From contig CAYOTA010000008.1 in the NCBI GenBank assembly GCA_964406795.1, positions 1 to 56,223 of the forward strand: a stretch of 56,223 bases of DNA, read 5' to 3'. Source of the DNA: an uncultured Gammaproteobacteria bacterium. Lineage in GTDB: Bacteria; Patescibacteriota; Microgenomatia; Levybacterales; GWA1-39-11. This document shows positions 9,678 to 51,241 of the stretch, in pieces. The translations under genes and the position numbers were made by a program. Numbering within the stretch: position 1 is the first letter of the stretch; every line of letters starts with the position of its first letter. The notes under the pieces were generated by a model. That model was not told the DNA's origin. It made no database searches and worked only from the letters and a program-made list of their open reading frames with translations.

Positions 9678-10811
9678 ATGAAGAAGCTTCTTGTTTTGCT
9701 CGTTCTCTTGTTGATTGTTGCATTTTTATGGCAACAGGCACTTCCACTATTTGGAAAAAAGTTGCCTTTACAAAGTTCTGAAACAGTGAAAATCCTAAAA
9801 GAAGAGAATTTAGTAGTAGATGTTGTTAAAAAGGTTGGCCCGTCCGTTGTAACAATAGGCGTTGAAGTGTCCCCAAATAGTCGCAATGGGCAGGAATTAG
9901 GCCCGTTTTCGCTTTTCTTTGAAGAGCCGTCTGTAACCCCAGAAAATAGTGAGGTAGAAGATGAGTATATTGGCTCAGGGTTTGTACTCACTAAAGAAGG
10001 GCTTATTGCAACAAATAAACATGTTGTGTCGTCCGGAACAGACAGATATATAGTGGTGGATGATAAAGGAAATAAGTATGAAGTTGAAAAGGTGTACAGA
10101 GATCCATTAAATGATTTGGCAATTCTTAAAACTTCTAAAACTCCAACTGGCGGATTTAAAGAAATTTCCTTTGGTGAATCAGGAAATGTAGAAGTAGGCC
10201 AGTTTGTGATTGCAATTGGAACGGCTCTTGGTGAGTTTAGAAATACAGTTACAACAGGCGTTGTGTCAGGTTTAGGACGTGGAATTACTGCCGGAAGTGC
10301 CTTTCAGGGTTTTGCGGAAAGGCTTGATAACGTAATCCAAACAGATGCTGCTATTAACCCAGGAAACAGTGGGGGACCACTCCTAAATGCGTCAGGACAA
10401 GTAATTGGAATTAATACTGCAGTTGCACAAAACGGGCAAAACATTGGTTTTGCAATTCCTATTAATATTATTAAGCAAAGTGTTGAAAACTTTAATGAAA
10501 CAGGCCAATTTAATAGACCATATTTAGGTGTCTCATACATCATACTTTCCAAACAAGCAGCTTTATTAAATGGACTTCCTGAGGGAGCATATGTGCGCGC
10601 AGTGATCCCAGATTCGTCAGCAGATAAAACTGGAATTCAGGTAGATGACATACTATCAGAAATTGATGGAAAAAAAATTACAAATGAAAATGGGGGACTT
10701 GCTGGAGTTATATCAAAAAAGAAGATAGGCGACAGCGCAAAATTAAAAGTAATAAGAGGGGACGAAACGTTGGAGTTAGAAGTAGCACTTGAAGCCGCAC
10801 CACAAGAGTAA
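9678..10811 (+). CDS. HtrA/DegP-family serine protease with C-terminal PDZ domain
   Basis: MKKLLVLLVLLL signal anchor, trypsin-like catalytic motifs (TNKHVV, DLAILK, GNSGGPLLN) and a PDZ domain at the C-terminus. An alternative ATG at 9669 lies only 2 nt after the -10 box TACACT (9661-9666), so 9678 is preferred. Confidence 0.85.
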   Translation: MKKLLVLLVLLLIVAFLWQQALPLFGKKLPLQSSETVKILKEENLVVDVVKKVGPSVVTIGVEVSPNSRNGQELGPFSLFFEEPSVTPENSEVEDEYIGSGFVLTKEGLIATNKHVVSSGTDRYIVVDDKGNKYEVEKVYRDPLNDLAILKTSKTPTGGFKEISFGESGNVEVGQFVIAIGTALGEFRNTVTTGVVSGLGRGITAGSAFQGFAERLDNVIQTDAAINPGNSGGPLLNASGQVIGINTAVAQNGQNIGFAIPINIIKQSVENFNETGQFNRPYLGVSYIILSKQAALLNGLPEGAYVRAVIPDSSADKTGIQVDDILSEIDGKKITNENGGLAGVISKKKIGDSAKLKVIRGDETLELEVALEAAPQE

Positions 10812-10873
10812 TTGACCACTTTTGGAAAGGCCTTGTTTTTGAGCCTTGTTTTTTTGTATAATACAAACACTTT

Positions 10874-11146
10874 ATGCGAAATTATAAATTGATAGTTGTT
10901 CTAAAAGGGGACATTACAAAAGACAAAAAACAGAAAATGCTGGAAAATATTCAGACATGGGCTGGAGCTGTTGACACAAAGGTCTCCGAATTAGGAGAGA
11001 AAAAATTGGCCTACACTATTAAAAGAGAAAAAAAGGGAGATTATGTTGCATTGAATTTCAATTCAGAAAATATTGCAGTAGATTTTGAGAAAAGGTTAAT
11101 CAATCAAGACGATATTTTACGGCACTTAATGATACGAGTAAAGTAA
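10874..11146 (+). CDS. rpsF: 30S ribosomal protein S6
   Basis: Starts MRNYKLIVVL, is 90 aa, and is followed by the ssb and rpsR synteny. Confidence 0.9.
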   Translation: MRNYKLIVVLKGDITKDKKQKMLENIQTWAGAVDTKVSELGEKKLAYTIKREKKGDYVALNFNSENIAVDFEKRLINQDDILRHLMIRVK

Positions 11147-11154
11147 TTTAAAAA

Positions 11155-11625
11155 ATGGCGCGTTCATTGAATAGAGTACAATTGATTGGGAATTTGACAC
11201 GGGATCCGGAGTTGCGTTACACACCTCAGGGAACTGCGGTATGTACATTTGGGCTCGCTACTAATAGGAGTTGGACAACGGACAACGGAGAAAAGAAAGA
11301 GGACACAGAATTTCACAGAATTGTTGTGTGGAACAAATTAGCAGAGTTGTGTTCTCAGCTCTTATCCAAAGGACGCAAAGTGTACGTGGAAGGAAGAATT
11401 GCGAATAGATCATGGACAGGACAGGACGGTACACAAAAAAGTACAACAGAAATTGTTATTGAGGATATGATAATTCTTGATAACAAAAGGACAGAAGGAA
11501 ACACTGACTCTCATCAAGAGGCGCCAGTTGTTGAAAAGCCTATTGCTGAAAGTCCAAAAACTGAAAAAGTAGAGACTAAAAAAGCAGTATCCGAGGATAT
11601 TAATCCGGACGATATACCTTTCTAA
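11155..11625 (+). CDS. ssb: Single-stranded DNA-binding protein
   Basis: OB-fold N-terminus LNRVQLIGNLTRDPELRYTPQGTAVCTFGLATNRSW and the acidic C-terminal tip DDIPF. Confidence 0.95.
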   Translation: MARSLNRVQLIGNLTRDPELRYTPQGTAVCTFGLATNRSWTTDNGEKKEDTEFHRIVVWNKLAELCSQLLSKGRKVYVEGRIANRSWTGQDGTQKSTTEIVIEDMIILDNKRTEGNTDSHQEAPVVEKPIAESPKTEKVETKKAVSEDINPDDIPF

Positions 11626-11646
11626 CGACTAACTAATAACAAATAT

Positions 11647-11889
11647 ATGAGTAACCAACGAAAAATACATATGAAGCGTGAAGTTCCAAAGAACTGCAGC
11701 TTTTGTAAGGAAGACAAAAATCCTGAATTTATGGAAACAGTAGGTCTTGAAAAATTTTTAACTGAGCGAGGAAAAATACTATCATCATCTAAAACTGGAG
11801 TTTGCACAAAGCACCAGAAAAAAATTACAATTGCAGTTAAACGAGCACGCCACCTAGCGCTTCTTCCATTTATAGTTCGTCCTGAGTAA
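11647..11889 (+). CDS. rpsR: 30S ribosomal protein S18
   Basis: 80 aa with [11 protein letters not shown] near the C-terminus, located after ssb. Confidence 0.9.
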
Positions 11890-17608: not shown

Positions 17609-18943
17609 ATGGCCCAGCGAATACCTCCTCATGACGACGATGCAGAAATTGCAGTGCTTGGCGCGCTGTTGATTGATCGTGAAGCAGCGCTTTTAAGCAC
17701 AGAACTCTTAAAGCCTGAATATTTTTATAATGATTCCAATAAAGTAATCTTTGAAGGAATGCAAGAACTATATGAAGTTAGAAAACCCATTGATATAGTT
17801 ACACTTACCAGCGTTTTAAAAACTCGCAAAGTTTTTGACCGCGTGGGTGGAGCTTCATACATAACCTCACTTGCCAATGCTGTGCCAACCGCTTCTAACA
17901 TTGAACATTATGCCGCTATTTTGCGCGAAAAATATCTCCGCCGCAGCTTGATTACTCTTGCAGGAACTATGACAGAGCAGGCATTTACTGAAGAAGACGA
18001 GGCGCCACAAGTATTGGATAATATTGAACAAAGCGTATATAGATTGAGCCAAGAAAATGTAAAACAGGGATTTTCACATATTAAAAATTCGCTTGCTGAA
18101 AGTTTTGACAGACTTGATCAGCTACACAAAGATGGGGGAGGAATGAGAGGTCTGGAAACAGGTTTTACGGAAATTGACTTTTTACTCTCAGGCCTGCAGC
18201 CTTCCAATATGATTGTATTGGCAGCGCGTCCCGGTCAGGGAAAAACAGCCTTTGTTGTTAATATGGCGCAAAACATTACCATTGCAGGAAAAAATCCCGT
18301 TGGGATTTTTTCCCTCGAAATGAGTAAAGAAGAGTTGGTTGACCGTTTGCTTGTGTCACAGTCAGATATAGACGCTTGGAAGCTTAAAACAGGAAGACTA
18401 TCTGAAGATGACTTTGAAAAATTATCAACAGCCATGGGAGAATTGGCCGAAGCGCCTATATTTATAGATGACACTCCAGGTATCACAATTGCTGAAATCA
18501 GAACCAAGGCTAGGCGCTTGCAGTTGGAATCAGGTATAAAATTACTCATAGTTGATTACTTGCAATTGGTAAATCCAGGGAAACGGCTTGAAAACCGTGT
18601 CCAAGAAGTGTCTTATGTGTCTCAAAATCTCAAAAATTTAGCACGTGAACTCAAAATTCCGGTTATTGCAGTTTCTCAGCTATCTCGTGCTGTTGAGCAG
18701 CGTGGTGAAAGGCGTCCACAGTTAGCCGATCTTCGTGAATCCGGTGCAATTGAGCAGGATGCTGATGTTGTTATGTTTTTGTACACAAAAGAAGAAGAAT
18801 TTACACCGCAAAGAATTGTGTCAATAAGTATTGCCAAGCACAGAAACGGTCCTGTTGGAGAAAAAGATCTGCTATTTAGGGGAGACCGGATCAAATTCTA
18901 TAATCTAGAAGGTAATAGAACTGACCCGCCGCAGCAAAATTAG
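17609..18943 (+). CDS. dnaB: Replicative DNA helicase DnaB
   Basis: N-terminus PPHDDDAEIAVLGALL, Walker A ARPGQGKTAF, and SLEMS, IVDYLQL and SQLSRAVEQR motifs. Confidence 0.95.
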   Translation: MAQRIPPHDDDAEIAVLGALLIDREAALLSTELLKPEYFYNDSNKVIFEGMQELYEVRKPIDIVTLTSVLKTRKVFDRVGGASYITSLANAVPTASNIEHYAAILREKYLRRSLITLAGTMTEQAFTEEDEAPQVLDNIEQSVYRLSQENVKQGFSHIKNSLAESFDRLDQLHKDGGGMRGLETGFTEIDFLLSGLQPSNMIVLAARPGQGKTAFVVNMAQNITIAGKNPVGIFSLEMSKEELVDRLLVSQSDIDAWKLKTGRLSEDDFEKLSTAMGELAEAPIFIDDTPGITIAEIRTKARRLQLESGIKLLIVDYLQLVNPGKRLENRVQEVSYVSQNLKNLARELKIPVIAVSQLSRAVEQRGERRPQLADLRESGAIEQDADVVMFLYTKEEEFTPQRIVSISIAKHRNGPVGEKDLLFRGDRIKFYNLEGNRTDPPQQN

Positions 18944-21716: not shown

Positions 21717-21802
21717 TGGTGGGCAAGGAGGGACTTGAACCCTCATAGCATTGCTGCCAAAGGTTTTTGAGACCTTCGCGTATACCATTCCGCCACTTGC
21801 CC
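21717..21802 (-). tRNA. tRNA-Leu (anticodon CAA), type II with long variable arm, CCA encoded
   Basis: The reverse complement reads GGGCAAGTGGCGGAATGGTATACGCGAAGGTCTCAAAAACCTTTGGCAGCAATGCTATGAGGGTTCAAGTCCCTCCTTGCCCACCA. It has a 7-bp acceptor stem, anticodon stem AAGGT/ACCTT with loop CTCAAAA, and T-arm GAGGG-TTCAAGT-CCCTC. Confidence 0.9.
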
Positions 21803-32461: not shown

Positions 32462-33291
32462 AGCTTACAATACCACGTTTTAAAATACAATTAAAAAAAA
32501 TACCATTTCTTAAATTAAGCAAACGAGGGAGGTTTGTTTTTTCAGTTGTAACATTATCTGCGGCATTGTTTTTTTCTGAATTTACTACAGGTGGTGTAGT
32601 AGTGTCACTTGGATTTCTCCTATCATTTTTAACAATTTTTTTCCTCTATCTTATTTTAAAAGATGACATTTCTAAAAAGTCGCATTTCTTACCAATTCTT
32701 ATTTTGCCGTTCTTTTTTACGCTTTCATTTAGTCTTTTTTACTCCCTTATTCCGGCTCGTTTATTAACGCGGGTATTATTAACTGGCGTATATGCATTTG
32801 GTGCTTACTCATTATTTTTGACAGAAAACATTTTTGCTATTTCCTCGCTTAGGACTATTAACTTATTGAGAAGTGCCCGTATTGTGTCTTTTGTTATAAC
32901 CATTTTTGTACTTTTCTTTCTTTTTAACATAATCTTTTCTTTGCGTTTGCCGCTATATATAACACCTTTTTTGGTTGCTATTATCTCGTTTCTTATGTCA
33001 GCACAATTCCTTTGGTCATATTCTGAAAATAGAGAAGGCGGGGGGCGCGAAGTATATACGTTTTCAGCAGGCATATCACTTATGATGGGGCAGTTAGCTT
33101 TTATTTTGGCATTGTGGCCTGTAACAGCTGCAATTTACGCAATCTTTTTAACAGGCATGTTTTATACCTATTCAGGCTTATCTAATGCCTGGCTTGAGCG
33201 TAGACTATTTAAAGGTATTTTATGGGAGTATATCTGGGTAGGTGCGCTGTCTATACTTTTTTTACTCGTGTTTTCCCACTGGGGTACGTAA
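32458..33291 (+). CDS. Polytopic membrane protein of unknown function
   Basis: 277 aa with 7-8 TM helices. ATGA overlap with ruvC. Confidence 0.5.
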   Translation: MKLTIPRFKIQLKKIPFLKLSKRGRFVFSVVTLSAALFFSEFTTGGVVVSLGFLLSFLTIFFLYLILKDDISKKSHFLPILILPFFFTLSFSLFYSLIPARLLTRVLLTGVYAFGAYSLFLTENIFAISSLRTINLLRSARIVSFVITIFVLFFLFNIIFSLRLPLYITPFLVAIISFLMSAQFLWSYSENREGGGREVYTFSAGISLMMGQLAFILALWPVTAAIYAIFLTGMFYTYSGLSNAWLERRLFKGILWEYIWVGALSILFLLVFSHWGT

Positions 33292-33375
33292 ATTAATTTC
33301 AAAATATAAACTTTGTAAATTTTTTTATTGATAAACCTTGAAATAGAAGAGGGGGGAAGTATATTTTTGGCCTCA

Positions 33376-33390
33376 AATGATATAGTTTGA
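33376..33390. repeat. Left arm of a 15-nt inverted repeat (AATGATATAGTTTGA)
   Basis: Its exact reverse complement lies at 34771-34785. Confidence 0.85.
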
Positions 33391-34186
33391 TATCCTATAG
33401 TTTTATCCTATAATAGTATTTACTTATTTAGTAATGTGGATATCTTTGAGGCTAGATAGTATGTTTCACCAGCCTCAAATTAGCCTCAAAATAAGCATTT
33501 AGAGTGCCGCGACTTTTCACGCTTCTGTCAGGGTGAGGCCAGCGCCACAGGTATGCATGCGTACCCAAGCCTAAAGTACACAAAAACGAAAAAAACACGA
33601 AACGCTATTTTTTTTAAATACCCTAGTGGTGTAGTATTGAGGCTATTACTACCAAAAAGTGTTAATAAATCAACAAAAAATATACTCAATTTCACCTGTG
33701 CAATTATACTTTTCACGCTTCTAGGTATGCTTTTTTTGTCCCCCCGGAGGAGGGGCTACATGAGGCTGAATTTACATAGATCTCCCTTGGTTAACTTCAT
33801 ACACTGACCTTACAAGCGAATCTACTCCGCAGTGTATTACCCTCGCCTCTAGATAGTACATTTTATTATGTCGTACAATAATACTTTTACGACATGATCC
33901 ACACATGTTGGGAGAGGGGCTCACAGGTTCTTTGTGTGTGTTTTGTGTATCGAATTCAATCCTTATATGTAAGGTCACAATGAATTCATGCCTTATTCTT
34001 CTGTTCCTGCTCTTGTGCCAAAAACGCTGTATTATAGGTTCTTCAGATTTCATGAGTTAAAATGACCGTATTTTTACAAATCCTTATAGTGGCTGCAAAC
34101 TTAGGAGGTATAACCAGTGAACTTAGGTATTAAACGGGCCTAGAATCGCATTGTAGAGGGTCATTTCTGAGGCTAAAAGATGCAGT

Positions 34187-34651
34187 CTATAAATGGCGGG
34201 TAAATGCTGATGTAATGTCGTTTGCAGCATTCAAATTAGCTCGATTCATGATTATAGGACCACGATTCATAAATGGAAATATTTTCTTTCCGTTTTTATC
34301 AGATATAGATATTTCAGTTCCAATTTCAAAAATAATAATGTTAGTTATAGGAGTAAGATCTGTGGCTGATTCGGAAGGAATAAGTTTATCAAGATCTGTT
34401 GAAATGTATGCCCGCAAGAGATATACCGGGCTTAGTGCGCCGTCCATACCCGGAACGAGTCTTTCACTAAAAGCGAATGGTTTAGTAACGTCATGCGTCA
34501 TGATGCCTACAGCATCTCTAAGCGTGGATATATTGGCTTTGATTTGGTCTTGAAGACGTTTATTTTCAAAGTTTCTTGCAGCCTCAGATCCAGAATTCCA
34601 GCGCCAGAACGTACGCATTAACGGTTCGTTTTCAATATCAGCATTTTTCAT
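34187..34651 (-). CDS. Orphan hypothetical protein inside the repeat-rich island
   Basis: 162-aa ORF (34187..34675), or 154 aa from MKNADIENE at 34651. No recognisable motif. It is the only reasonably protein-like ORF between 33292 and 35003. Confidence 0.35.
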   Translation of the reverse strand: MKNADIENEPLMRTFWRWNSGSEAARNFENKRLQDQIKANISTLRDAVGIMTHDVTKPFAFSERLVPGMDGALSPVYLLRAYISTDLDKLIPSESATDLTPITNIIIFEIGTEISISDKNGKKIFPFMNRGPIIMNRANLNAANDITSAFTRHL

Positions 34652-34770
34652 AACTGAACTATAACAAGGCACCATAAGCTTGTCAAGTAAAGCTGTATCA
34701 AGTTACTTTACGAATAATGTTTATGTCGCACATTGTTAATATCTAGCCTCCCGCGTGAAAAGTTTCTCAT

Positions 34771-34785
34771 TCAAACTATATCATT
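34771..34785. repeat. Right arm of the 15-nt inverted repeat (TCAAACTATATCATT)
   Basis: Exact reverse complement of 33376-33390. The pair encloses 1,410 bp. Confidence 0.85.
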
Positions 34786-35003
34786 AGTATTTTATACTTT
34801 TATATTCGTGGCTAATTGAGGTGTAACCTCAATTGAGGCTAGATTCTTATGTATTCTTCTCGTTTATTTCTACCTAGCTTGACATGCGTACTTGTTATGT
34901 CGTACATTATTATGACTACTCTGCTCTTATCTGTAACGAGCAAAGTAGGCGGAAGAATAATTAACTACAATTCGCGCATTTCTTTTAAATATAAGTTGAT
35001 TCT

Positions 35004-35945
35004 ATGGAAAATAATTCAAATTTAGAAAAATATATTACTCAGTTTTTAGAATATTTAGAAATTGAAAAAAATTCCAGTAAGTTAACTATCCGCAATTACA
35101 GATTTTACCTAGAGCGTTTTCGTGCCTGGTTTGAGCCTGCTTACCCAGATAAAAATATATCAGATATCACAACGGATGTTATGCGTAAATATCGCATGTA
35201 CCTATCACAGTTAACCGATGAAAAAGGCATGACGCTTATGAAAATTACTCAGTCATATCACATAATTGCGTTGCGTTCTATGCTAAGGTACCTTGTAAGA
35301 CAAGACATGGAGACACTGGCTCCTGAAAAAATTGATTTACCCAAGGCTGAATCACGCTCGTTGCTATTTTTAGAGGAAAACCATTTACGTCAGTTATTTA
35401 ACTCCGTCGACACGTCTACGGAAAAAGGTATGCGGGACCGTGCTATTTTGGAAATGTTATTCTCAACCGGCCTGCGTGTGTCCGAGTTAACTAGACTGAA
35501 TAAAGATCAATTAAATTTTAAAACACGTGAGTTTGGTGTTATAGGAAAAGGAAATAAAGTGAGGATTGTATTTTTATCGGATAACGCTGTCATGTGGCTT
35601 GAAAAATATCTAGATACCAGGCTTGATCCCTATAAGCCACTTTTTATAAGATACGCCAAAGGTACAAGTGCTGAAAATGATGGGGAGAAAATGAGATTAA
35701 CACCCAGATCTGTGGAGCGTATACTTGAGAAATATGTCAGGGCTTCCAGAATTCCTGTAAAAGCCACACCACACACCATGCGCCATTCATTTGCGACAGA
35801 TTTACTTTCAAATGGGGCGGACTTAAGATCTGTTCAGGAAATGCTGGGACACAAAAATATTTCTACAACTCAAATTTATACTCACGTAACCAATCCTCAG
35901 CTAAAAGAGGTCCACCGTAAGTTTCACAAAGGAAACAAAAGGTAA
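35004..35945 (+). CDS. Tyrosine recombinase, XerC/XerD family
   Basis: N-terminal SAM-like domain (FLEYLEIEKNSSKLTIRNYRFYL), catalytic region ARDRAILEMLFSTGLRVSEL and HTMRHSFATDLLSNGADLRSVQEMLGHKNISTTQIYTHV (R..HxxR..Y). Confidence 0.9.
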   Translation: MENNSNLEKYITQFLEYLEIEKNSSKLTIRNYRFYLERFRAWFEPAYPDKNISDITTDVMRKYRMYLSQLTDEKGMTLMKITQSYHIIALRSMLRYLVRQDMETLAPEKIDLPKAESRSLLFLEENHLRQLFNSVDTSTEKGMRDRAILEMLFSTGLRVSELTRLNKDQLNFKTREFGVIGKGNKVRIVFLSDNAVMWLEKYLDTRLDPYKPLFIRYAKGTSAENDGEKMRLTPRSVERILEKYVRASRIPVKATPHTMRHSFATDLLSNGADLRSVQEMLGHKNISTTQIYTHVTNPQLKEVHRKFHKGNKR

Positions 35946-35951
35946 GATATT

Positions 35952-37313
35952 TTAGTGGATTATTGAGAGTTTGAATGGAGGGAGTTCAGCCTTGGGCTCA
36001 GCATAAATATTGTCTCCTCGTTCCAGCGTATCTAAAATCTGAATATATCTATAAAACGCTGCATTTGTCCAGCCAAATCCTCCCTGGCTTTGGTAATGAA
36101 AGTCAACGCCAATGTCTCCCTTTACCGCGTCAATTTTTTCAAAGAATGTTTTGTGTTCTCTAAATATTTTGGCGTGAGTTTTAATGTACTTTTCCATAAG
36201 CCGTTTAGCATCTTTTACAAATCCGTATTTAAGTAATCCTATTACTGTTAAATATTCCAGAGGCGGCCATGAATTAGGATAATCCCACTGCTTTGGAAGT
36301 AGTATTTCTTCCAGAGCCGGCACATATCTTTCAGGCAGTTTTGAAAGATCAACTTTTGGGGCAAGTGATTCTTTTGTAGTTATAGCAAGTCCATAGGGTG
36401 TTTCAAAATGCTTGAGTTTTTTAACCATACGTTTTGCCTGTTCTTTTGTTGCAATGCCTGCCCATAAAGGAGTAAACCCTGCAAGAGATAAAAATTCACT
36501 ACGTCTTTTATATACGTATCCGTAGTCATAAAAAAATCCGCTTTTTTCATCCCACATAAGCCTATTAATTTCTTTTTTCCGCTCTTCGGCAATACCTTTC
36601 CAGTTTATTTCGTCATTTAGTTCTCCTAGGTGTTGTGCTATCTTTCCAAAGTCACGTTCGTATTTAAACAGTAAAACATTTAGGTCTATCGGTAAAAACT
36701 CATCACATCTGTTATAAAACCTGGAGGTAAAGTCCCATCCTGATTCCAGCTCTGATGAGTGAGCATACCCTATATCTCGGTCACCATACCTGCTAAGCGC
36801 GTGCCCTTTAACTTTGTGATTATACAGTCCTTCATGGTCAAGCCAAATTTTTTCATATTCTTCTTTTGCCGCCATTGTCATGTTTTTTAACCAAGTTTGG
36901 TGCCTTTTTAAATTAAAAAGGAAAACTTTCTTTAGTTTTTTGTGTTTCAGGTAGCGAAAATAATGCCCATTATACGTGTCTAATATCATAGATGTTAAAA
37001 ACGGAGGCTGAGATCTTCCCATGGAAGCTGGAGAATTAAAGTTAGGAATAATTCCATACTTTTTATATGTAAATACAAAATTTTCCACCATGTTTTTTAG
37101 TAGCCACTCACGTTTTGTTCCTATAACACCTCGTAAAATAAAAAAGGAATCCCAATAAAACATGAATTTGAATTTTTTAGCGTTGGGGGTTACATAAGGG
37201 TGAGGAATGGTTATGACATTGTGATTAACAACTCTCTTCTCAGGCTTATGAATCACTTGATCCCAAAACGATTCTATATAGTCTAGGCAATCTTTGTATT
37301 GTTCACTCCACAT
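35952..37313 (-). CDS. Trehalase-like glycoside hydrolase (GH37)
   Basis: KFKFMFYWDSFF resembles trehalase signature 1 (RFxExYYWDSY). QWDYPNSWPP is close to signature 2 (QWDxPxGWAP). 453 aa. Confidence 0.75.
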   Translation of the reverse strand: MWSEQYKDCLDYIESFWDQVIHKPEKRVVNHNVITIPHPYVTPNAKKFKFMFYWDSFFILRGVIGTKREWLLKNMVENFVFTYKKYGIIPNFNSPASMGRSQPPFLTSMILDTYNGHYFRYLKHKKLKKVFLFNLKRHQTWLKNMTMAAKEEYEKIWLDHEGLYNHKVKGHALSRYGDRDIGYAHSSELESGWDFTSRFYNRCDEFLPIDLNVLLFKYERDFGKIAQHLGELNDEINWKGIAEERKKEINRLMWDEKSGFFYDYGYVYKRRSEFLSLAGFTPLWAGIATKEQAKRMVKKLKHFETPYGLAITTKESLAPKVDLSKLPERYVPALEEILLPKQWDYPNSWPPLEYLTVIGLLKYGFVKDAKRLMEKYIKTHAKIFREHKTFFEKIDAVKGDIGVDFHYQSQGGFGWTNAAFYRYIQILDTLERGDNIYAEPKAELPPFKLSIIH

Positions 37314-46151: not shown

Positions 46152-48635
46152 TTACTCGCCCTCAACAGCTGTCGCTGTGGCAACGTGGTCACCTGTTGTT
46201 TTAAAACGCATGAGAATTACTCCCTGCGCATTGCGGGACAATAGAGGAACGGATGTTAGATCTAACTTTACAATAAGACCTTTGAGCGTTGTAATGATTA
46301 CTTCTTTGGATTTTTCATCCAATACATTTGAGAATACAATTTTTCCTGTTTTGTCAGTTATATTAGCTACTCTAATTCCCTGCCCTCCTCTGTTCTGATT
46401 TTTAAATTCTGAAACACGCGTTTTTTTTCCAATTCCGTTGGCAGTTATAACAAGTAAGTTTTTATTTGAACTTTGCTCCATAACGTCAGCTGCTACTACC
46501 TCGTCATCTCCCACGAGCTTAATTCCCCTAACTCCCATAGATGATCTTCCAGTGCTTCTGATTTGATCTTCGCTAAATGAGATTATTTTTCCATTTTTGG
46601 TAACTAGTAGTACTTCCATTTTTCCATCCGTGAAGTCTACAAATGATAGCTCATCATTACTTTGAATCTTAATTGCCAAAATACCTGATTTTCTAATATT
46701 TTTAAATTCTTCAAGGCTGGTCTTTTTAACTTCACCTTTTTTGGTTGCCATGAGAACAAACTTGTTTGCAGCTTTTTGAGTAGGGTTATAAGTTAAAACA
46801 GACTTAATGGTTTCGCCGGCCGGCATATCAATAAGATTGACTATAGCTTGTCCTTTAGCTACTCTACTGCTTTCAGGAATTTCAAACACGCGGGTTTGGT
46901 ATACTTTTCCGGTGTTTGTGTAGAACAGTACAAAGTCATGTGTTTCAGAATACAAAATATGCTCTATTGCATCATCCTCTTTTGTAGTCATACCAGTAAT
47001 TCCTTTACCTCCCCTGTGCTGCGTTTTGAATGATGACATGCTTTGTCTCTTCACGTATCCTGTTTGGGTAATAGTAATAACAGTAGGTTCATTTTGAATG
47101 AGGTCTTCCTCAGAAAATTCATCAACTTTTGATTTATAAACCCTGGTACGGCGTTCATCAGCAAATTTTTCTTTTAATTTTTCTATTTCCCCTTTTATAA
47201 CAGCTAACATTTTAATTGGGTCGCCCAGAATAGAATTCAGGTAATCAATTAATTCTTTAACTACCTTCCACTCCTCTTCCAGCTTTTCCCGCTCAAGTGC
47301 TGCCAGACGCCTTAACTGCATGTCCAAAATTGCAGTTGCCTGAAGTTCAGATAATTTAAAGTGCTCCATAAGGGCAGCTTTAGCGGCATCAGCTGAAGCC
47401 GATTCCCTAATAAGTTTTATAACTGCGTCTATGTTGTTTACTGCAATAAGCAACCCATCAAGAATGTGAAGTCTTGATGTAGCCTCACGTAGCTCAAACT
47501 CTGAGCGTCTAGTAACTACAGAAAATCTGTGCTTTAAATATTCTTCCAGAATTATTTTGAGATTTACTGTTTTTGGTACTCCGTCAACGAGTGCTACCAT
47601 ATTTGCGGGAAATTGAGTTTGTAGGGACGTGAGTTTGAAAAGATTATTTAAAACCTTTTTAGGGGTTGCGTCTCTCTTGAGTTCTACTACTACTCGTACA
47701 CCATGTCTATCTGATTCGTCGCGTAGATCAGAAATGCCTTCAAGTCGTTTGTCTTTTGCAAGTTCAGCAATTTTGGCAACCAGCATGGCCTTATTCACTT
47801 GGTAAGGAACTTCCCGTATGATAATTGCACTCTTCCCGTTTCCGATATTCTCTATTTCAGCAATTCCCCGGATTATAATTTTGCCGCGACCTGTTCTGTA
47901 TACATTTTTAATTTCTGTAATGTCATATATTGCTCCTCCAGTTGGGAAGTCCGGTCCTTTTACATATTCTATTAACTCATCAACGGTAACATCAGCTGAC
48001 AGCGTTACTTTCCCATCCTCTCCTTTAGTAGGAACGGTTTTCCCCATAAGATATATGGTGGCATCAATTACTTCGCCTATATTATGAGGGGGAATTTTTG
48101 TTGCCATACCTACCGCAATTCCTTCAGCTCCGGCAAGTAATAAATTAGGAAGAAGACTTGGTAGATACAGGGGTTCTTGAAGGGTTGCGTCAAAATTAGG
48201 TAAAAAGTCTACAGTTTCTTTATCTATGTCGCGTAGCATCTCACCTGCAATTGTTGCGAGCTTAGCCTCAGTGTAACGCATTGCTGCAGCAGAGTCTCCG
48301 TCCATAGATCCAAAGTTTCCTTGACCATGAATCAGTGGATATCTGAGTGAAAAGTCTTGAGCCAAGCGCACTAACGTATCATAAATTGCGGTGTCACCAT
48401 GTGGGTGATATTTACCCATAACTTCTCCAACAATTTTTGCAGACTTTGCAAACCGAGCTGTAGGATTTAGTCCCATTTCATGCATGGCAAAAAGAATACG
48501 TCTGTGAACAGGTTTTAGTCCGTCACGAACGTCCGGGAGTGCACGTTGGACTATAACGCTCATAGCGTAATCCAAGTAGGCTTTTTGTGCCTCTTTTGCT
48601 AAATCTATATGTTCTAATTTTCCTATGTCTGACAT
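46152..48635 (-). CDS. gyrA: DNA gyrase subunit A
   Basis: [23 protein letters not shown] (catalytic Tyr) and a C-terminal beta-pinwheel with a GyrA-box-like QNRGGQGI. 827 aa. Confidence 0.95.
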
Positions 48636-48642
48636 AATTTAC

Positions 48643-48676
48643 AAACGTCTGCGCTTACGTATAAGCGCATGCGTTT
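48643..48676 (-). promoter_or_regulatory. Strong intergenic hairpin between ppa and gyrA
   Basis: Inner perfect stem GCGCTTA (48651-48657) / TAAGCGC (48662-48668) with a 4-nt loop. Outer stem AAACG (48643-48647) / CGTTT (48672-48676). No T-run follows on the coding strand, so it is not a classical terminator. Confidence 0.5.
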
Positions 48677-48681
48677 AAAAA

Positions 48682-49194
48682 CTACTTATAATTCTCAAGT
48701 CCACCCTGAATCTCTTTAATCGCGTCTTCTCTACCCTTCCATCCGCTTACTTTTACCCATTTGCCTGGTTCATTTTTTTTGTAATTTTCAAAAAAGTATT
48801 TAATTTTTTCCGTGATCTCATTTGGCAATTCTGAAATATCATTATACTTCCCAAATTCGGGATTTGCTTTCTCAGTTGGTACTGCAACAAGTTTAGCATC
48901 CTGTCCTTTTTCGTCTTCAGTTTCAAGCATTCCAATTGGTTTGGCTACTATAACTGATCCTGGTGTTAAAACGTCTGGCGCTAGTACTAAAACGTCTACT
49001 GGATCACCATCTCCTGATAATGTGTTTGGAATAAACCCGTAATTTGCCGGATATCCTTGATCAAAGAATAAAAATCTGTCAACAGTAATCATTTCTGTTT
49101 CCTTATCAAATTCGTATTTAACCTTACTGCCTAGTGGCACTTCAATTAATACATTTACTAATTCCGGTGCTTTTTCTCCTGCTGTTAATTTCAT
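48682..49194 (-). CDS. ppa: Inorganic pyrophosphatase (family I)
   Basis: VNVLIEVPLGSKVKYE, YPANYGFIP, DGDPVDVLV. 170 aa. SD GAGGTG upstream. Confidence 0.95.
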   Translation of the reverse strand: MKLTAGEKAPELVNVLIEVPLGSKVKYEFDKETEMITVDRFLFFDQGYPANYGFIPNTLSGDGDPVDVLVLAPDVLTPGSVIVAKPIGMLETEDEKGQDAKLVAVPTEKANPEFGKYNDISELPNEITEKIKYFFENYKKNEPGKWVKVSGWKGREDAIKEIQGGLENYK

Positions 49195-49220
49195 AATTTA
49201 GTTTTCACCTCATTTCGTTT

Positions 49221-49282
49221 GTCATTCTGAGTGAAGCGAAGAATCTTAAACTAACTAGATCCTTCATTAGATTCAGGATGAC
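49221..49282 (-). promoter_or_regulatory. Long imperfect hairpin between gyrB and ppa
   Basis: Outer stem GTCATTCTGA (49221-49230) / TCAGGATGAC (49273-49282), 10 bp with one G-T pair. Inner stem GAAGAATCT (49238-49246) / AGATCCTTC (49257-49265) with one mismatch. Confidence 0.45.
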
Positions 49283-49288
49283 ATACTA

Positions 49289-51241
<1,953 letters not shown>

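Follow-up and report, generated by a model that had tools for sequence, protein, structure and literature searches.

A non-coding region conserved beside xer in Levyibacteriota carries a dif-type Xer site and an origin-like DnaA-box array

Introduction

Upstream of a tyrosine recombinase gene, a 56,223-nt segment of bacterial DNA (the window, meaning the whole stretch analysed) contains a 1.7-kb island (33292-35003) that is poor in open reading frames and crowded with short direct and inverted repeats. What does such an island do? The original prediction, made from the letters alone, offered four meanings: a decayed or miniature integrative element, an iteron-like array of an integrated replicon, a structured non-coding RNA, or the neighbourhood of the chromosomal terminus and its dif site. 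Comparison with related loci identifies the island as a non-coding chromosome-maintenance region that is conserved across the candidate phylum Levyibacteriota and is neither junk nor a dead mobile element. Within it lie a dif-type Xer site, a DnaA-box and AT-rich array resembling a replication origin, and a single small, mobile gene cassette.

Results

The island is a conserved chromosomal locus

More than 120 loci from Levyibacteriota (CPR, Microgenomates) have a common layout, in which YebC-(RuvC)-DUF5656 is followed by an ORF-free interval of 0.5-1.5 kb and then xer. The fuller order, YebC-(RuvC)-DUF5656, ORF-free gap, dif, variable cargo and xer, is common to 80 genome loci and ~66 metagenome loci. 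Its left edge in the window is marked by composition (15% GC at 33290-33349):

33292-33349, no strand: AT-rich stretch (~85% A+T in the composition profile) directly 3' of the DUF5656 stop codon, where the conserved non-coding region has its left edge

The sole substantial ORF in the island lies at 34187-34675 on the minus strand, in agreement with the description of the island as ORF-poor. The four proteins at the window edges returned no exact-match protein records. The genes rpsF-ssb-rpsR, dnaB and gyrB-gyrA lie 10-22 kb from the locus, spread over both flanks, and dnaB, at ~10 kb, is syntenic; in Firmicutes these genes are origin-proximal.

The repeats that had been listed for the island all exist, and shuffle tests on the whole window place them far above chance. 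They comprise GAGGCTAGAT (33448-33457 and 34835-34844 on the plus strand, 34741-34750 on the minus strand), the core TTGAGGCTA (33637-33645 plus, 33481-33489 minus), ACTTTTCACGCTTCT (33512-33526 and 33708-33722, with an inverted copy at 34753-34763), an exact 15-nt inverted pair (33376-33390 and 34771-34785, with 1,380 nt between the arms), two occurrences of TATCCTATA, a 9-bp hairpin at 34814-34834 and a GGTATG/CGTACC hairpin with one G-T pair in its stem. In this shuffle check, which had been proposed with the original prediction, TGAGGCTA has 10 matches (1.4 expected), 5 of them in the island; ACTTTTCACGC has 3 and ATGATATAGTTTGA 2 (0.03 expected for each); and TATGTCGYACA has 3 (0.01 expected), every one in the island. 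ATGTCGYAnAAT was considered as a general promoter motif and rejected; within the 56-kb window it is confined to the island. Part of the repeat content is lineage-specific:

34741-34785, minus strand: small, condensed repeat of the upstream array in inverted orientation (B1 iteron, ACTTTTCACGC, GAGGCTAGAT), present in the window, L081/L082 and L002

The most important repeat was absent from the list. It consists of 14-nt inverted arms around a 6-nt spacer (33865-33898), and its left arm has two extra copies, at 34721-34738 and 34892-34912. Across the more than 120 loci, five motif families keep their order and orientation, and the repeats of the window are their local copies. The region is very probably a conserved array of protein-binding DNA motifs, one of which is an Xer site.

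A dif-type Xer site

The core of the 33865-33898 repeat has the form of a dif site:

33868-33895, plus strand: dif-type Xer core, a 28-bp near-palindrome (11-6-11) with left arm ATGTCGTACAA, 6-bp centre TAATAC and right arm TTTTACGACAT

Nine of the 11 arm positions are symmetric, and the arms and 6-bp centre fit the dif pattern of ~11-bp inverted arms around a centre of 6-8 bp. When loci are compared, the centre of the 28-mer is invariant and the changes in the outer arms are symmetric (e.g. ACGTCG...CGACGT, ACTTCG...CGAAGT). Identity across loci is ~90-100%, mostly with 0-3 and at most 5 mismatches over 30 nt, against 60-88% for Xer itself. The 56-kb window contains a single full 28-mer, as does each of 63 + 54 loci of 5-13 kb. 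Of 81 loci, 63 carry it as a single copy on the same strand as xer, and most of the others lack upstream flank; in the 54 further metagenome loci the site lies 257-599 bp to the right of the DnaA box. A XerC/D/XerA-like gene follows on the same strand 0.6-5.3 kb downstream. No viral contig among those scanned for the dif pattern carries it. The related contig L081 ends exactly in the 28-mer site.

The 28-mer is probably the chromosomal dif. The idea of a terminus/dif neighbourhood was right in substance, since a dif-type Xer site does lie in the island; the gene convergence from which it had been argued, and a GC-skew peak as a sign of the terminus, do not hold up (see below). The product of the adjacent xer, probably working alone, would be the recombinase for the 28-bp site. 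Each of the near-identical 11-bp arms would be occupied by one of two Xer subunits, and chromosome dimers would be resolved as strands are exchanged across the 6-bp centre. The change of skew expected at a terminus was not seen: GC and AT skew at four-fold sites keep their sign within ~6 kb on either side. For the site to be dif without such a reversal, either origin and terminus must coincide or the action of Xer must be independent of the terminus.

The xer gene and its promoter

One of the extra left-arm copies lies in front of the recombinase gene:

35004-35945, plus strand: xer, XerC/XerD/XerA-type tyrosine recombinase; orthologues 60-88% identical across the phylum
34879-34908, plus strand: xer promoter TTGACA-18-TACATT, with the -10 box inside the dif left-arm copy ATGTCGTACA (34897-34906), a putative Xer operator

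The protein scores about equally against XerA and XerD structures. It falls below the cut-off of the XerS model and of the NCBIfam XerA model, and its match to XerH is only distant. Of 77 loci, 49 have the left-arm 12-mer no more than 200 nt ahead of xer, where 0.009 would be expected; 26 of the 49 have a TTGACA-like -35 box as well. Because the dif left arm recurs in this way over the xer -10 box, autoregulation of xer is suggested: with its -10 box covered by the arm copy, Xer would repress its own gene.

A plastic zone between dif and xer

The interval between dif and xer holds 0.6-5.3 kb of variable cargo among loci. The window carries a single orphan gene here:

34131-34178, plus strand: conserved block GGCCTWRAATCGCATYSTRGARGG then TGAGGCTAA, with ATCGCATTGTA inside, ~275-320 bp right of dif; left cassette border
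34187-34675, minus strand: ORF162, orphan protein-coding gene, in a cassette (~34180-34738) recently exchanged between genomes
34720-34738, plus strand: extra dif left-arm copy TTTATGTCGCACATTGTTA without right arm; right border of the ORF162 cassette

ORF162 is a real gene under purifying selection (dN/dS 0.21). Its true start is likely the ATG at 34651, which would give a leaderless 154-aa product; a promoter-like TTGACA-17-TATAGT at 34686-34658 lies ahead of it. It has only two close relatives, and an exhaustive profile search added no more than three remote ones, one of which has an uninformative context. Searches of Pfam, NCBIfam, PADLOC and PHROG gave no match, and the AlphaFold model has a pLDDT of 34, so a fold search was not worthwhile. 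RNA evidence consists of a single low-depth contig over ORF162.

The cassette shows both presence/absence and horizontal transfer. Within the same genome pair, pS is 0.22 for ORF162 and 0.78 for xer, and nucleotide identity to L081 is 88% for ORF162 vs 70-76% for the flanking genes. Apart from the window, the cassette is confined to L081/L082 and P0003; in L001 and L002 the borders are there but ORF162 is not. More generally, variable cassettes between dif and xer are flanked by additional arm copies and by pseudo-sites with long spacers, and cassette content and order differ among close relatives. The left border does not abut dif, being ~285 bp away from it, and in L001 the counterpart of the right-border arm copy lies ~780 bp right of dif. 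The dif-to-xer stretch is a plastic zone in which cassettes are gained and lost, occupied in the window by ORF162. Homologous exchange via the conserved flanking blocks is an equally good mechanism for this as a dif-linked one.

The DnaA-box array and a candidate origin

About 435 bp upstream (left) of the dif-type site, the conserved region holds an array made up of one fixed-orientation DnaA box, two to three oriented TTTTCACR boxes, an AT-rich stretch, TGATAYAG iterons, and CCYATAAT and TGAGGCTA motifs. In the window these are:

33378-33395, plus strand: tandem pair of TGATAYAG iterons phased at 10 bp (block B1), forming the core of AATGATATAGTTTGA, a repeat listed in the original prediction; conserved in a 46-locus alignment
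33387-33414, plus strand: promoter-like TTGATA-16-TATAAT (11/12 promoter match), within the 75 bp next to the DnaA box that are richest in A+T
33435-33443, minus strand: DnaA box ATATCCACA, with 8/9 matches in the window
33462-33470, plus strand: TGTTTCACC, first oriented (n)TTTTCACR DnaA-box-like motif (block B3)
33512-33522, plus strand: ACTTTTCACGC, second TTTTCACR box (block B4); further direct copy at 33708-33718
33638-33645, plus strand: TGAGGCTA motif (block B6), 30-fold enriched in the region across 57 loci; other copies at 33447-33454, 34168-34175 and 34834-34841 (plus) and 33481-33488 (minus), and GAGGCTAGAT at 34741-34750 (minus)
34031-34038, minus strand: ATTATAGG, inverted CCYATAAT copy conserved ~170 bp right of dif in a 15-locus alignment

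The order B1, DnaA box, TTTTCACR boxes and dif is kept across loci. Of 57 relatives, 38 have a perfect DnaA box TTATCCACA, without exception on the same strand; these 38 copies inside the region compare with 4 in 617 kb outside it, a 96-fold enrichment. Each locus has one perfect or 8-of-9 TTATCCACA together with two to three TTTTCACR motifs, which depart from TTWTNCACA at no more than 1-2 positions. The (n)TTTTCACR motif is 20-fold enriched in the region and strongly oriented (112 plus, 5 minus), opposite to the DnaA box. TGATAYAG is 17-fold enriched (83 plus, 1 minus), the B1 iterons lying 20-80 bp left of the DnaA box and at -20 to -82 from the array in the ~66 metagenome loci. CCYATAAT is 18-fold enriched in both orientations, and two copies of the CCYATAAT/TATCCTATA family, at 33394-33400 and 33407-33414, overlap the promoter-like site at 33387-33414.

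The 75 nt left of the DnaA box have a mean GC content of 25% over 106 loci, compared with a background of 36-38%, and thus provide an AT-rich element; in the window GC is ~22-27% at 33380-33470. The AT-rich 75 bp around 33387-33414 are the candidate unwinding region. The suggestion of an iteron array is broadly supported by the phased and oriented TGATAYAG repeats, the DnaA box and the TTTTCACR boxes. It fails for an integrated replicon, as the array is a phylum-wide chromosomal feature.

Other features of known origins were not found. Neither dnaA nor dnaN occurs within 6-30 kb in any locus, no dnaA is found in the window or the 80 loci, and no DnaA-trios were recognised by eye beside the box. 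A metagenome scan with the array pattern, which was derived from this same locus, gave 14 non-Levyibacteriota matches, 5 of them beside dnaA in classic DnaA-box-rich origins; the array has fewer strong DnaA boxes than those dnaA-linked origins. There is also no C-rich to G-rich switch (cumulative-skew minimum) at the locus, which is the outcome expected if replication is one-directional. Our best reading, that the array is a replication origin with origin and dif/terminus side by side, stands at a little under even odds.

Strand bias and the direction of replication

The original prediction had read a terminus from gene convergence and looked to GC skew to locate it. This reading was rejected by analysis of four-fold sites. 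Gene-orientation blocks switch three times within the 56 kb, and the skew test covered ~6 kb on each side of the locus, and 56 kb in the window. Four-fold-site GC skew is higher in left (plus-strand) than in right (minus-strand) genes in 38 of 39 loci. At these sites, minus-strand genes are C-rich on either side of the locus and the plus strand is G-rich on both island flanks; within the same gene families, skew flips with gene orientation. For the window alone, the replication term is near zero for the right flank. The raw GC-skew peak is a coding-strand effect. Sequence-bearing read sets comprised two runs, represented by low-coverage Logan unitigs with noisy depth. Loose ends at 85% identity were considered as structural variants and rejected; they are foreign contigs with local similarity.

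Closed Microgenomates genomes of the order UBA1400 have monotonic cumulative skew (Kadnikov et al. 2020, PMC7143001). Their authors proposed either an adjacent origin and terminus or one-directional theta replication, at a site that was not located (PMC7143001). The present locus may be that origin/terminus junction of Microgenomates chromosomes, a reading to which we give a probability of roughly 0.4. A DnaA-dependent origin would lie 0.26-0.6 kb from dif and an autoregulated xer, with one fork stopped at once. Once bound to the boxes, DnaA would unwind the AT-rich DNA next to them; with the origin beside dif, replication would run around the chromosome essentially in a single direction. Candidate barriers to the second fork are the oriented iterons and the complexes formed by DnaA or Xer. 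If true, this would explain the monotonic GC skew of closed Microgenomates genomes, and this would be the first cellular chromosome with replication start and dimer resolution in one compact module.

Alternative readings

The most serious alternative keeps the dif/Xer module and the autoregulated xer, and lets the fork pass through an array that is not an origin. The array would then be a DnaA regulatory or titration site (cf. datA, DARS, DnaA-box cluster) or a set of promoters and operators, and Xer would act independently of the terminus like archaeal XerA. The lack of skew reversal at the locus, the absence of a nearby dnaA, the single strong DnaA box per locus, the promoter-like elements inside the array and the described FtsK independence of XerA/dif (PMC5357621) all agree with this. 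Yet two separate coincidences would then have to hold throughout the phylum: that dif is not terminal, and that an origin-like array keeps a fixed distance of 257-599 bp to it. Moreover, the box-plus-AT-rich layout is that of an origin, the array pattern otherwise retrieves dnaA-linked origins, and the published monotonic skew of related lineages would be left unused. We regard this alternative as quite possible, if somewhat doubtful. The converse, in which the array is an origin and the 28-bp palindrome an operator or origin-associated site for Xer or another protein that also controls the xer promoter, is improbable. The palindrome does sit inside the origin-like region, its left arm overlaps a -10-like TACAAT, and the same 12-mer is a promoter element upstream of xer; but the 11-6-11 architecture, invariant 6-bp centre and symmetric arm changes are typical of tyrosine-recombinase core sites rather than operators, arm copies and long-spacer pseudo-sites border variable cassettes toward xer, and cassette order varies between close relatives.

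Two of the meanings first proposed fare worse as accounts of the whole island. A large structured non-coding RNA, transcribed from the TTGATA-16-TATAAT promoter toward dif, would suit the strong promoter-like site at 33387-33414 and the collinear conserved blocks with variable spacers. However, the covariance-model scan that had been suggested found no Rfam family at gathering threshold in the island or in 11 related loci; permissive thresholds gave only noise in the island (E>3), and the sole match in the window is a tRNA-Leu far from it. Folding of 33415-33865 is unremarkable on both strands (z-scores -1.5 and -1.8), the short-motif blocks vary in copy number and two families also in orientation, one block is a perfect DnaA box, and a search for a terminator-like site found none. 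This makes an RNA locus very improbable. Least probable of all is a decayed or miniature integrative element, a 1,410-bp unit within the 15-nt inverted pair with xer as its integrase. The exactness of the pair, the adjoining tyrosine recombinase and the orphan ORF162 had made it attractive. Against it, the whole island is syntenic in more than 120 loci; the left arm of the pair falls in a phylum-wide conserved block at a fixed chromosomal position and the right arm is confined to the closest relatives of the window; and xer is a housekeeping orthologue in conserved synteny. What survives of the idea is the ~0.56-kb ORF162 segment, to which mobile behaviour is limited.

Comparison with known systems

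The literature searched contained no description of a dif site, Xer operator or origin for CPR (Patescibacteria), which make up a large share of bacterial diversity. The locus is a concrete phylum-wide candidate for both dif and origin, and predicts self-repression of Xer via a dif half-site. When CPR genome assemblies are oriented or checked, the 28-mer and the DnaA-box array can serve as practical landmarks; the locus is also an example of how misleading gene convergence and a raw GC-skew peak can be in such genomes.

In single-recombinase Xer systems, proximity of dif to the recombinase gene has been described as a hallmark (PMC5357621). XerS/difSL of streptococci and lactococci and XerH/difH of Helicobacter and Campylobacter resemble the locus in having one xer linked to a near-palindromic dif, A/T runs in the inner arms (..CAA / TTTT.. 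compared with GAAAA / TTTTC) and a presumed role in chromosome dimer resolution (PMC5357621). The locus differs from them in its XerC/D/XerA-like recombinase, in a classic 11-6-11 28-mer in place of 31 bp with an 11-bp centre, in the 0.6-5.3 kb of cargo between dif and xer, in the half-site on the xer -10 box, in the DnaA-box array by dif and in the lack of a skew switch. Archaeal XerA/dif shares a single recombinase and a conserved 28-bp dif, and the Xer of the locus scores similarly against XerA and XerD; XerA is described as FtsK-independent, which loosens the constraint on dif position. Unlike that system, the lineage here is bacterial and its Xer falls below the NCBIfam XerA cut-off. We know of no archaeal dif described beside a DnaA-type origin.

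As in bacterial oriC with its basal unwinding system (PMC8287927), the most AT-rich 75 bp lie beside a consensus DnaA box whose orientation is fixed, with further weak boxes and a small repeat array in a conserved ORF-free region. Unlike oriC, the locus is away from dnaA/dnaN, has few strong boxes and no recognised DnaA-trios, is not at a skew minimum and lies 0.26-0.6 kb from a dif-type site. The cargo zone recalls IMEX (CTX and TLC phages, the gonococcal island) and the pdif modules of Acinetobacter: recombinase-less cassettes lie by dif, are bordered by dif-like half- or pseudo-sites and vary in content and order between relatives, with one recent cassette transfer. Its borders, however, are single direct arms and not full sites, and its cargo is ordinary (trehalase, glycosyl hydrolase and similar) or an orphan ORF, without phage or plasmid genes.

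The closest parallel in replication is the adjacent origin/terminus hypothesis for Microgenomates (Kadnikov et al. 2020, PMC7143001), which concerns the same group and likewise involves strand bias of the same sign on both sides and no gene-strand bias. That work used whole-genome skew in the order UBA1400 and named no locus, whereas the present analysis offers a candidate locus in Levyibacteriota with skew taken from its flanks. The locus thereby makes the hypothesis of an adjacent origin and terminus, or of one-directional replication, in Microgenomates testable.

Repeat content and conservation of the island

All repeats listed in the original prediction were found in the gene-poor island upstream of xer (33292-35003), each at its predicted position. 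They are non-random, as their counts exceed those in dinucleotide-preserving shuffles of the window: TGAGGCTA has 10 matches (1.4 expected), five of them inside the island; ACTTTTCACGC has three (0.03 expected); ATGATATAGTTTGA has two (0.03 expected); and TATGTCGYACA, confined to the island, has three (0.01 expected). The most telling repeat was absent from that list: two inverted 14-nt arms separated by 6 nt (33865-33898), of which the left one recurs at 34721-34738 and 34892-34912. The 15-nt inverted pair noted earlier stems from a 45-bp inverted mini-array (34741-34785), which is restricted to the window's closest relatives. The single ORF candidate is indeed the sole sizeable ORF of the island. 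The finding is genuine and larger than first supposed: judged from its sequence, the island is probably a phylum-conserved, multi-motif chromosome-maintenance region composed of a dif-type site, a putative Xer operator, an origin-like DnaA-box array and a small mobile cassette.

Main features of the region
33868-33895, plus strand: dif-type site, 28-bp near-palindrome
34187-34675, minus strand: ORF162, orphan gene
34879-34908, plus strand: predicted xer promoter, TTGACA (34879)-18-TACATT (34908), with half-site at 34897-34906
35004-35945, plus strand: xer, tyrosine recombinase gene

The recombinase carries Phage_integrase and SAM-like domains and scores nearly equally as XerC, XerD and archaeal XerA. 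A scan of one genome per species yielded 80 related loci, nearly all from Candidatus Levyibacteriota MAGs (CPR, Microgenomates group), with Xer orthologues of 60-88% identity. Clustering of every ORF of these loci revealed a constant layout: gene families f6 and f3, YebC-(RuvC)-DUF5656, an ORF-free gap of 0.47-1.5 kb, the palindrome, 0.6-5.3 kb of variable cargo, xer and mostly minus-strand genes. This fixed layout points to a housekeeping Xer, and to an ORF-free gap that belongs to the phylum rather than being peculiar to the window's genome.

The dif-type site and its half-site in the xer promoter

In a blastn comparison of the island with the loci, positions 33864-33897 were 93-100% identical nearly everywhere, against just 60-70% for the neighbouring proteins. 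In 63 of 81 loci the core consensus, ATGTCGYACAA-TAATAC-TTTTRCGACRT, is present as a single copy, invariably on the xer strand; most of the other loci lack the upstream flank. It was also found in 54 of 80 metagenome loci. Its 11-6-11 geometry matches that of classical dif sites. The centre is near-invariant (TAATAC in most sites, TATAAC in four, and two single-base variants), and outer arm positions tend to covary between arms (T-A/C-G at position 2; G-C to T-A at position 3 in locus L071), a pattern that would be expected if one protein binds both arms. Conserved blocks extend ~320 bp to the right of the site, comprising ATTATAGG, then GGCCTWRAATCGCAT.., then TGAGGCTAA (window 34031-34038 and 34131-34178). 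According to the review literature, Xer systems with a single recombinase may be marked by a dif site adjoining the recombinase gene (PMC5357621). The dif-type site was absent from the viral contigs searched, and the literature search found no CPR dif site or origin; the site is previously undescribed. The Logan contig of L081, a locus with an ORF162 homologue, terminates exactly within its dif-type site (10768-10821), suggesting that heterogeneity in the population or repeats at dif broke the assembly there.

In 49 of 77 loci, a 12-mer identical to the dif left arm, (A/C)(T/C)GTCG(T/C)ANA(A/T)T, is found on the coding strand no more than 200 nt ahead of xer (expectation, 0.009 per locus). In 26 of these 49, a TTGACA-like -35 box precedes the motif's internal TAnAAT by 16-19 nt. 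A role of the left-arm motif as a general promoter element was rejected, as it has no other occurrence in 56 kb. We infer that Xer bound at the promoter half-site would cover its own -10 box, a form of negative autoregulation for which Tus at TerB is the comparison case. The sequence CATGCGTAC is present both between the -35 box and the half-site (34884-34892) and in the GC-rich hairpin within the motif array (33549-33564).

A DnaA-box-like motif array left of the dif-type site

Alignment of 46 gaps resolved short collinear blocks, about 70-100% conserved, separated by unalignable spacers; these blocks are the motifs of the original prediction.

Conserved motifs of the array (46-gap alignment)
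33378-33395: block B1, two TGATAYAG repeats with 10-bp phasing
Either orientation: TCCTATAAT/ATTATAGGA units
33435-33443: TGTGGATAA(C), the consensus DnaA box read on the opposite strand, 8/9 matches
33462-33470, 33512-33522 and 33708-33718: (n)TTTTCACR motifs, two or three, fitting the relaxed DnaA-box consensus TTWTNCACA
Next after the TTTTCACR motifs: TGAGGCTA units

Motif enrichment in the non-coding region of 57 loci (61 kb, inside) relative to the remaining 617 kb of the same loci (outside)
TTATCCACA: 38 inside, all on one strand, one per locus; 4 outside; 96-fold
TTTTCACR: 112(+)/5(-) inside; 60 outside; 20-fold
TGATAYAG: 83(+)/1(-) inside; 51 outside; 17-fold
CCYATAAT: 43(+)/30(-) inside; 41 outside; 18-fold
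TGAGGCTA: 81(+)/39(-) inside; 41 outside; 30-fold

With 106 loci anchored on the DnaA box, AT content peaks in the 75 bp left of the box (25% GC versus 36-38%), ahead of which lies a short G-rich cluster; in the window, 33290-33349 is 85% A+T. Scanning metagenome contigs with the pattern TGTGGATAAC..TTTTCAC..TTTTCAC returned about 66 more Levyibacteriota-type loci, in which B1 lies between -20 and -82 and dif between +257 and +599, and 14 other hits, five of which adjoin dnaA in classic DnaA-box-rich origins. Together with the AT-rich flank, these results indicate that the array behaves like a DnaA-box cluster with a putative adjoining unwinding region. Adjoining the right arm of this site is a second 8/9 DnaA-box match (TGATCCACA, 33895-33903), at the dif-type palindrome itself; it is shared with locus L001 only.

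The island is unlikely to be an RNA gene, because searches of the window, of the island with permissive thresholds and of 11 relatives gave no Rfam match, folding is ordinary (6-8% of shuffles fold at least as well as the two strands of 33415-33865), and the array motifs vary in copy number and, in two families, in orientation. Transcription across the array is plausible given a strong promoter-like site at 33387-33414. The sole RNA gene detected in the window is tRNA-Leu(CAA) (21717-21802, minus strand).

Strand bias and the position of a candidate origin

The original prediction had raised a terminus as one possibility from gene convergence. This reading, and a raw GC-skew peak near 36 kb taken as its support, fail at four-fold degenerate sites. 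Gene-orientation blocks change three times within 56 kb and raw skew tracks the coding strand, owing to first and second codon positions, so the raw peak is no sign of a terminus.

GC skew of the coding strand at four-fold degenerate sites (80 loci pooled)
Left plus-strand genes: +0.07
Left minus-strand gene (f3): -0.27
Right minus-strand genes: -0.23
xer: -0.06
Other right plus-strand genes: -0.01

The left plus-strand genes exceeded the right minus-strand genes in 38 of 39 loci, and the latter were negative in 38/39. In gene families found in both orientations, the skew flips with orientation (e.g., f11, +0.25 vs -0.23). At four-fold degenerate sites, the coding strands of the 80 loci and of the window genes share a general C>G bias of about -0.1, on which a strand-specific component of about +0.1 to +0.17 is superimposed. 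The group values and orientation flips show that the xer-coding strand is G-rich (and T-rich) on either side of the locus. Up to about 6 kb from the locus, no skew reversal marking a bidirectional origin or classical terminus was detected (the signal is noisier in the window by itself), and no dnaA was found in the window or in any locus.

A closed Microgenomates genome and two relatives display monotonic cumulative GC skew, for which the authors proposed an origin near the terminus or one-directional replication, without locating the site (PMC7143001); the literature search found no follow-up to this proposal. The fixed spacing of 0.26-0.6 kb between the dif-type site and the DnaA-box/AT-rich array, combined with an unchanged strand bias across the locus, favors an adjacent origin and terminus. 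The array would then be an origin beside the dif-type site, with origin and terminus close together or replication one-directional. We give a probability of about 0.45 to origin and dif lying side by side, as that hypothesis predicts. The main rival, somewhat less likely, retains the dif/Xer module but takes the array as a DnaA-dependent regulatory or titration site, the fork merely passing through. In the flanks, rpsF-ssb-rpsR (10.9-11.9 kb; 10874-11889) and dnaB (17.6 kb; 17609-18943) on the left and gyrB-gyrA (46-51 kb; 46152-51241) on the right, a typical origin-neighborhood set in Firmicutes, lie 10-22 kb from the island; at least one further genome (L204) shares this synteny. Since all are transcribed toward the island, this is only a lead. 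The proposed coincidence of an origin and a dimer-resolution site is directly testable by closed genomes, deep coverage and simple biochemistry.

A plastic interval between the dif-type site and xer

ORF162 received no family assignment and its predicted structure was unusable; it has two close and three remote relatives. It is nonetheless a genuine gene, with a dN/dS of 0.21 against the L081 copy, and a promoter-like TTGACA-17-TATAGT ahead of it (34686-34658) points to the ATG at 34651 as a leaderless start. Between the same two genomes, pS is 0.22 for ORF162 versus 0.78 for xer, and its DNA is 88% identical compared with 70-76% for neighboring genes, which shows recent exchange of a roughly 0.56-kb segment (about 34180-34738) between diverged genomes. 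This segment starts after the conserved block at 34131-34178, and its end coincides exactly with the extra dif left arm (34720-34738); loci L001 and L002 possess both borders and lack the gene.

The cargo of the interval differs by lineage (nothing, trehalase, a transaldolase-like gene, a GH18-like gene, others), and extra arm copies are also present. Loci L010, L014 and L017 have a second palindrome at about -165, -170 and -1289 from xer, respectively, in which roughly 17 nt separate the dif arms (ATGTCGCACAAT-N17-ATGTACGACA); these could represent pseudo-dif sites or remnants of attachment sites. Among the cargo close to xer, family f67 (about 200 aa, MATPPRFFEDGGFYHVYNRGN...; L012 at -874 to -161 from xer, L056 and L065) resembles, by its look, an IS200/REP-associated Y1 transposase-like protein. 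The order of xer and trehalase differs between close relatives. The trehalase gene lies between dif and xer in L001 and beyond xer in the window (35004-37313), where the order is ORF162(-)-xer(+)-trehalase(-)-SIMPL(-); in L081 and L082 it is ORF162(-)-trehalase(-)-xer(+)-SIMPL(-) (L081 7377-9813). As gene orientations stay the same, this difference reflects cassette transposition and not inversion. Because the borders of the cassettes consist of single arms in direct orientation, homologous exchange via the conserved flanks would explain these swaps equally well. In its overall organization, the dif-xer interval resembles IMEX elements and pdif modules.
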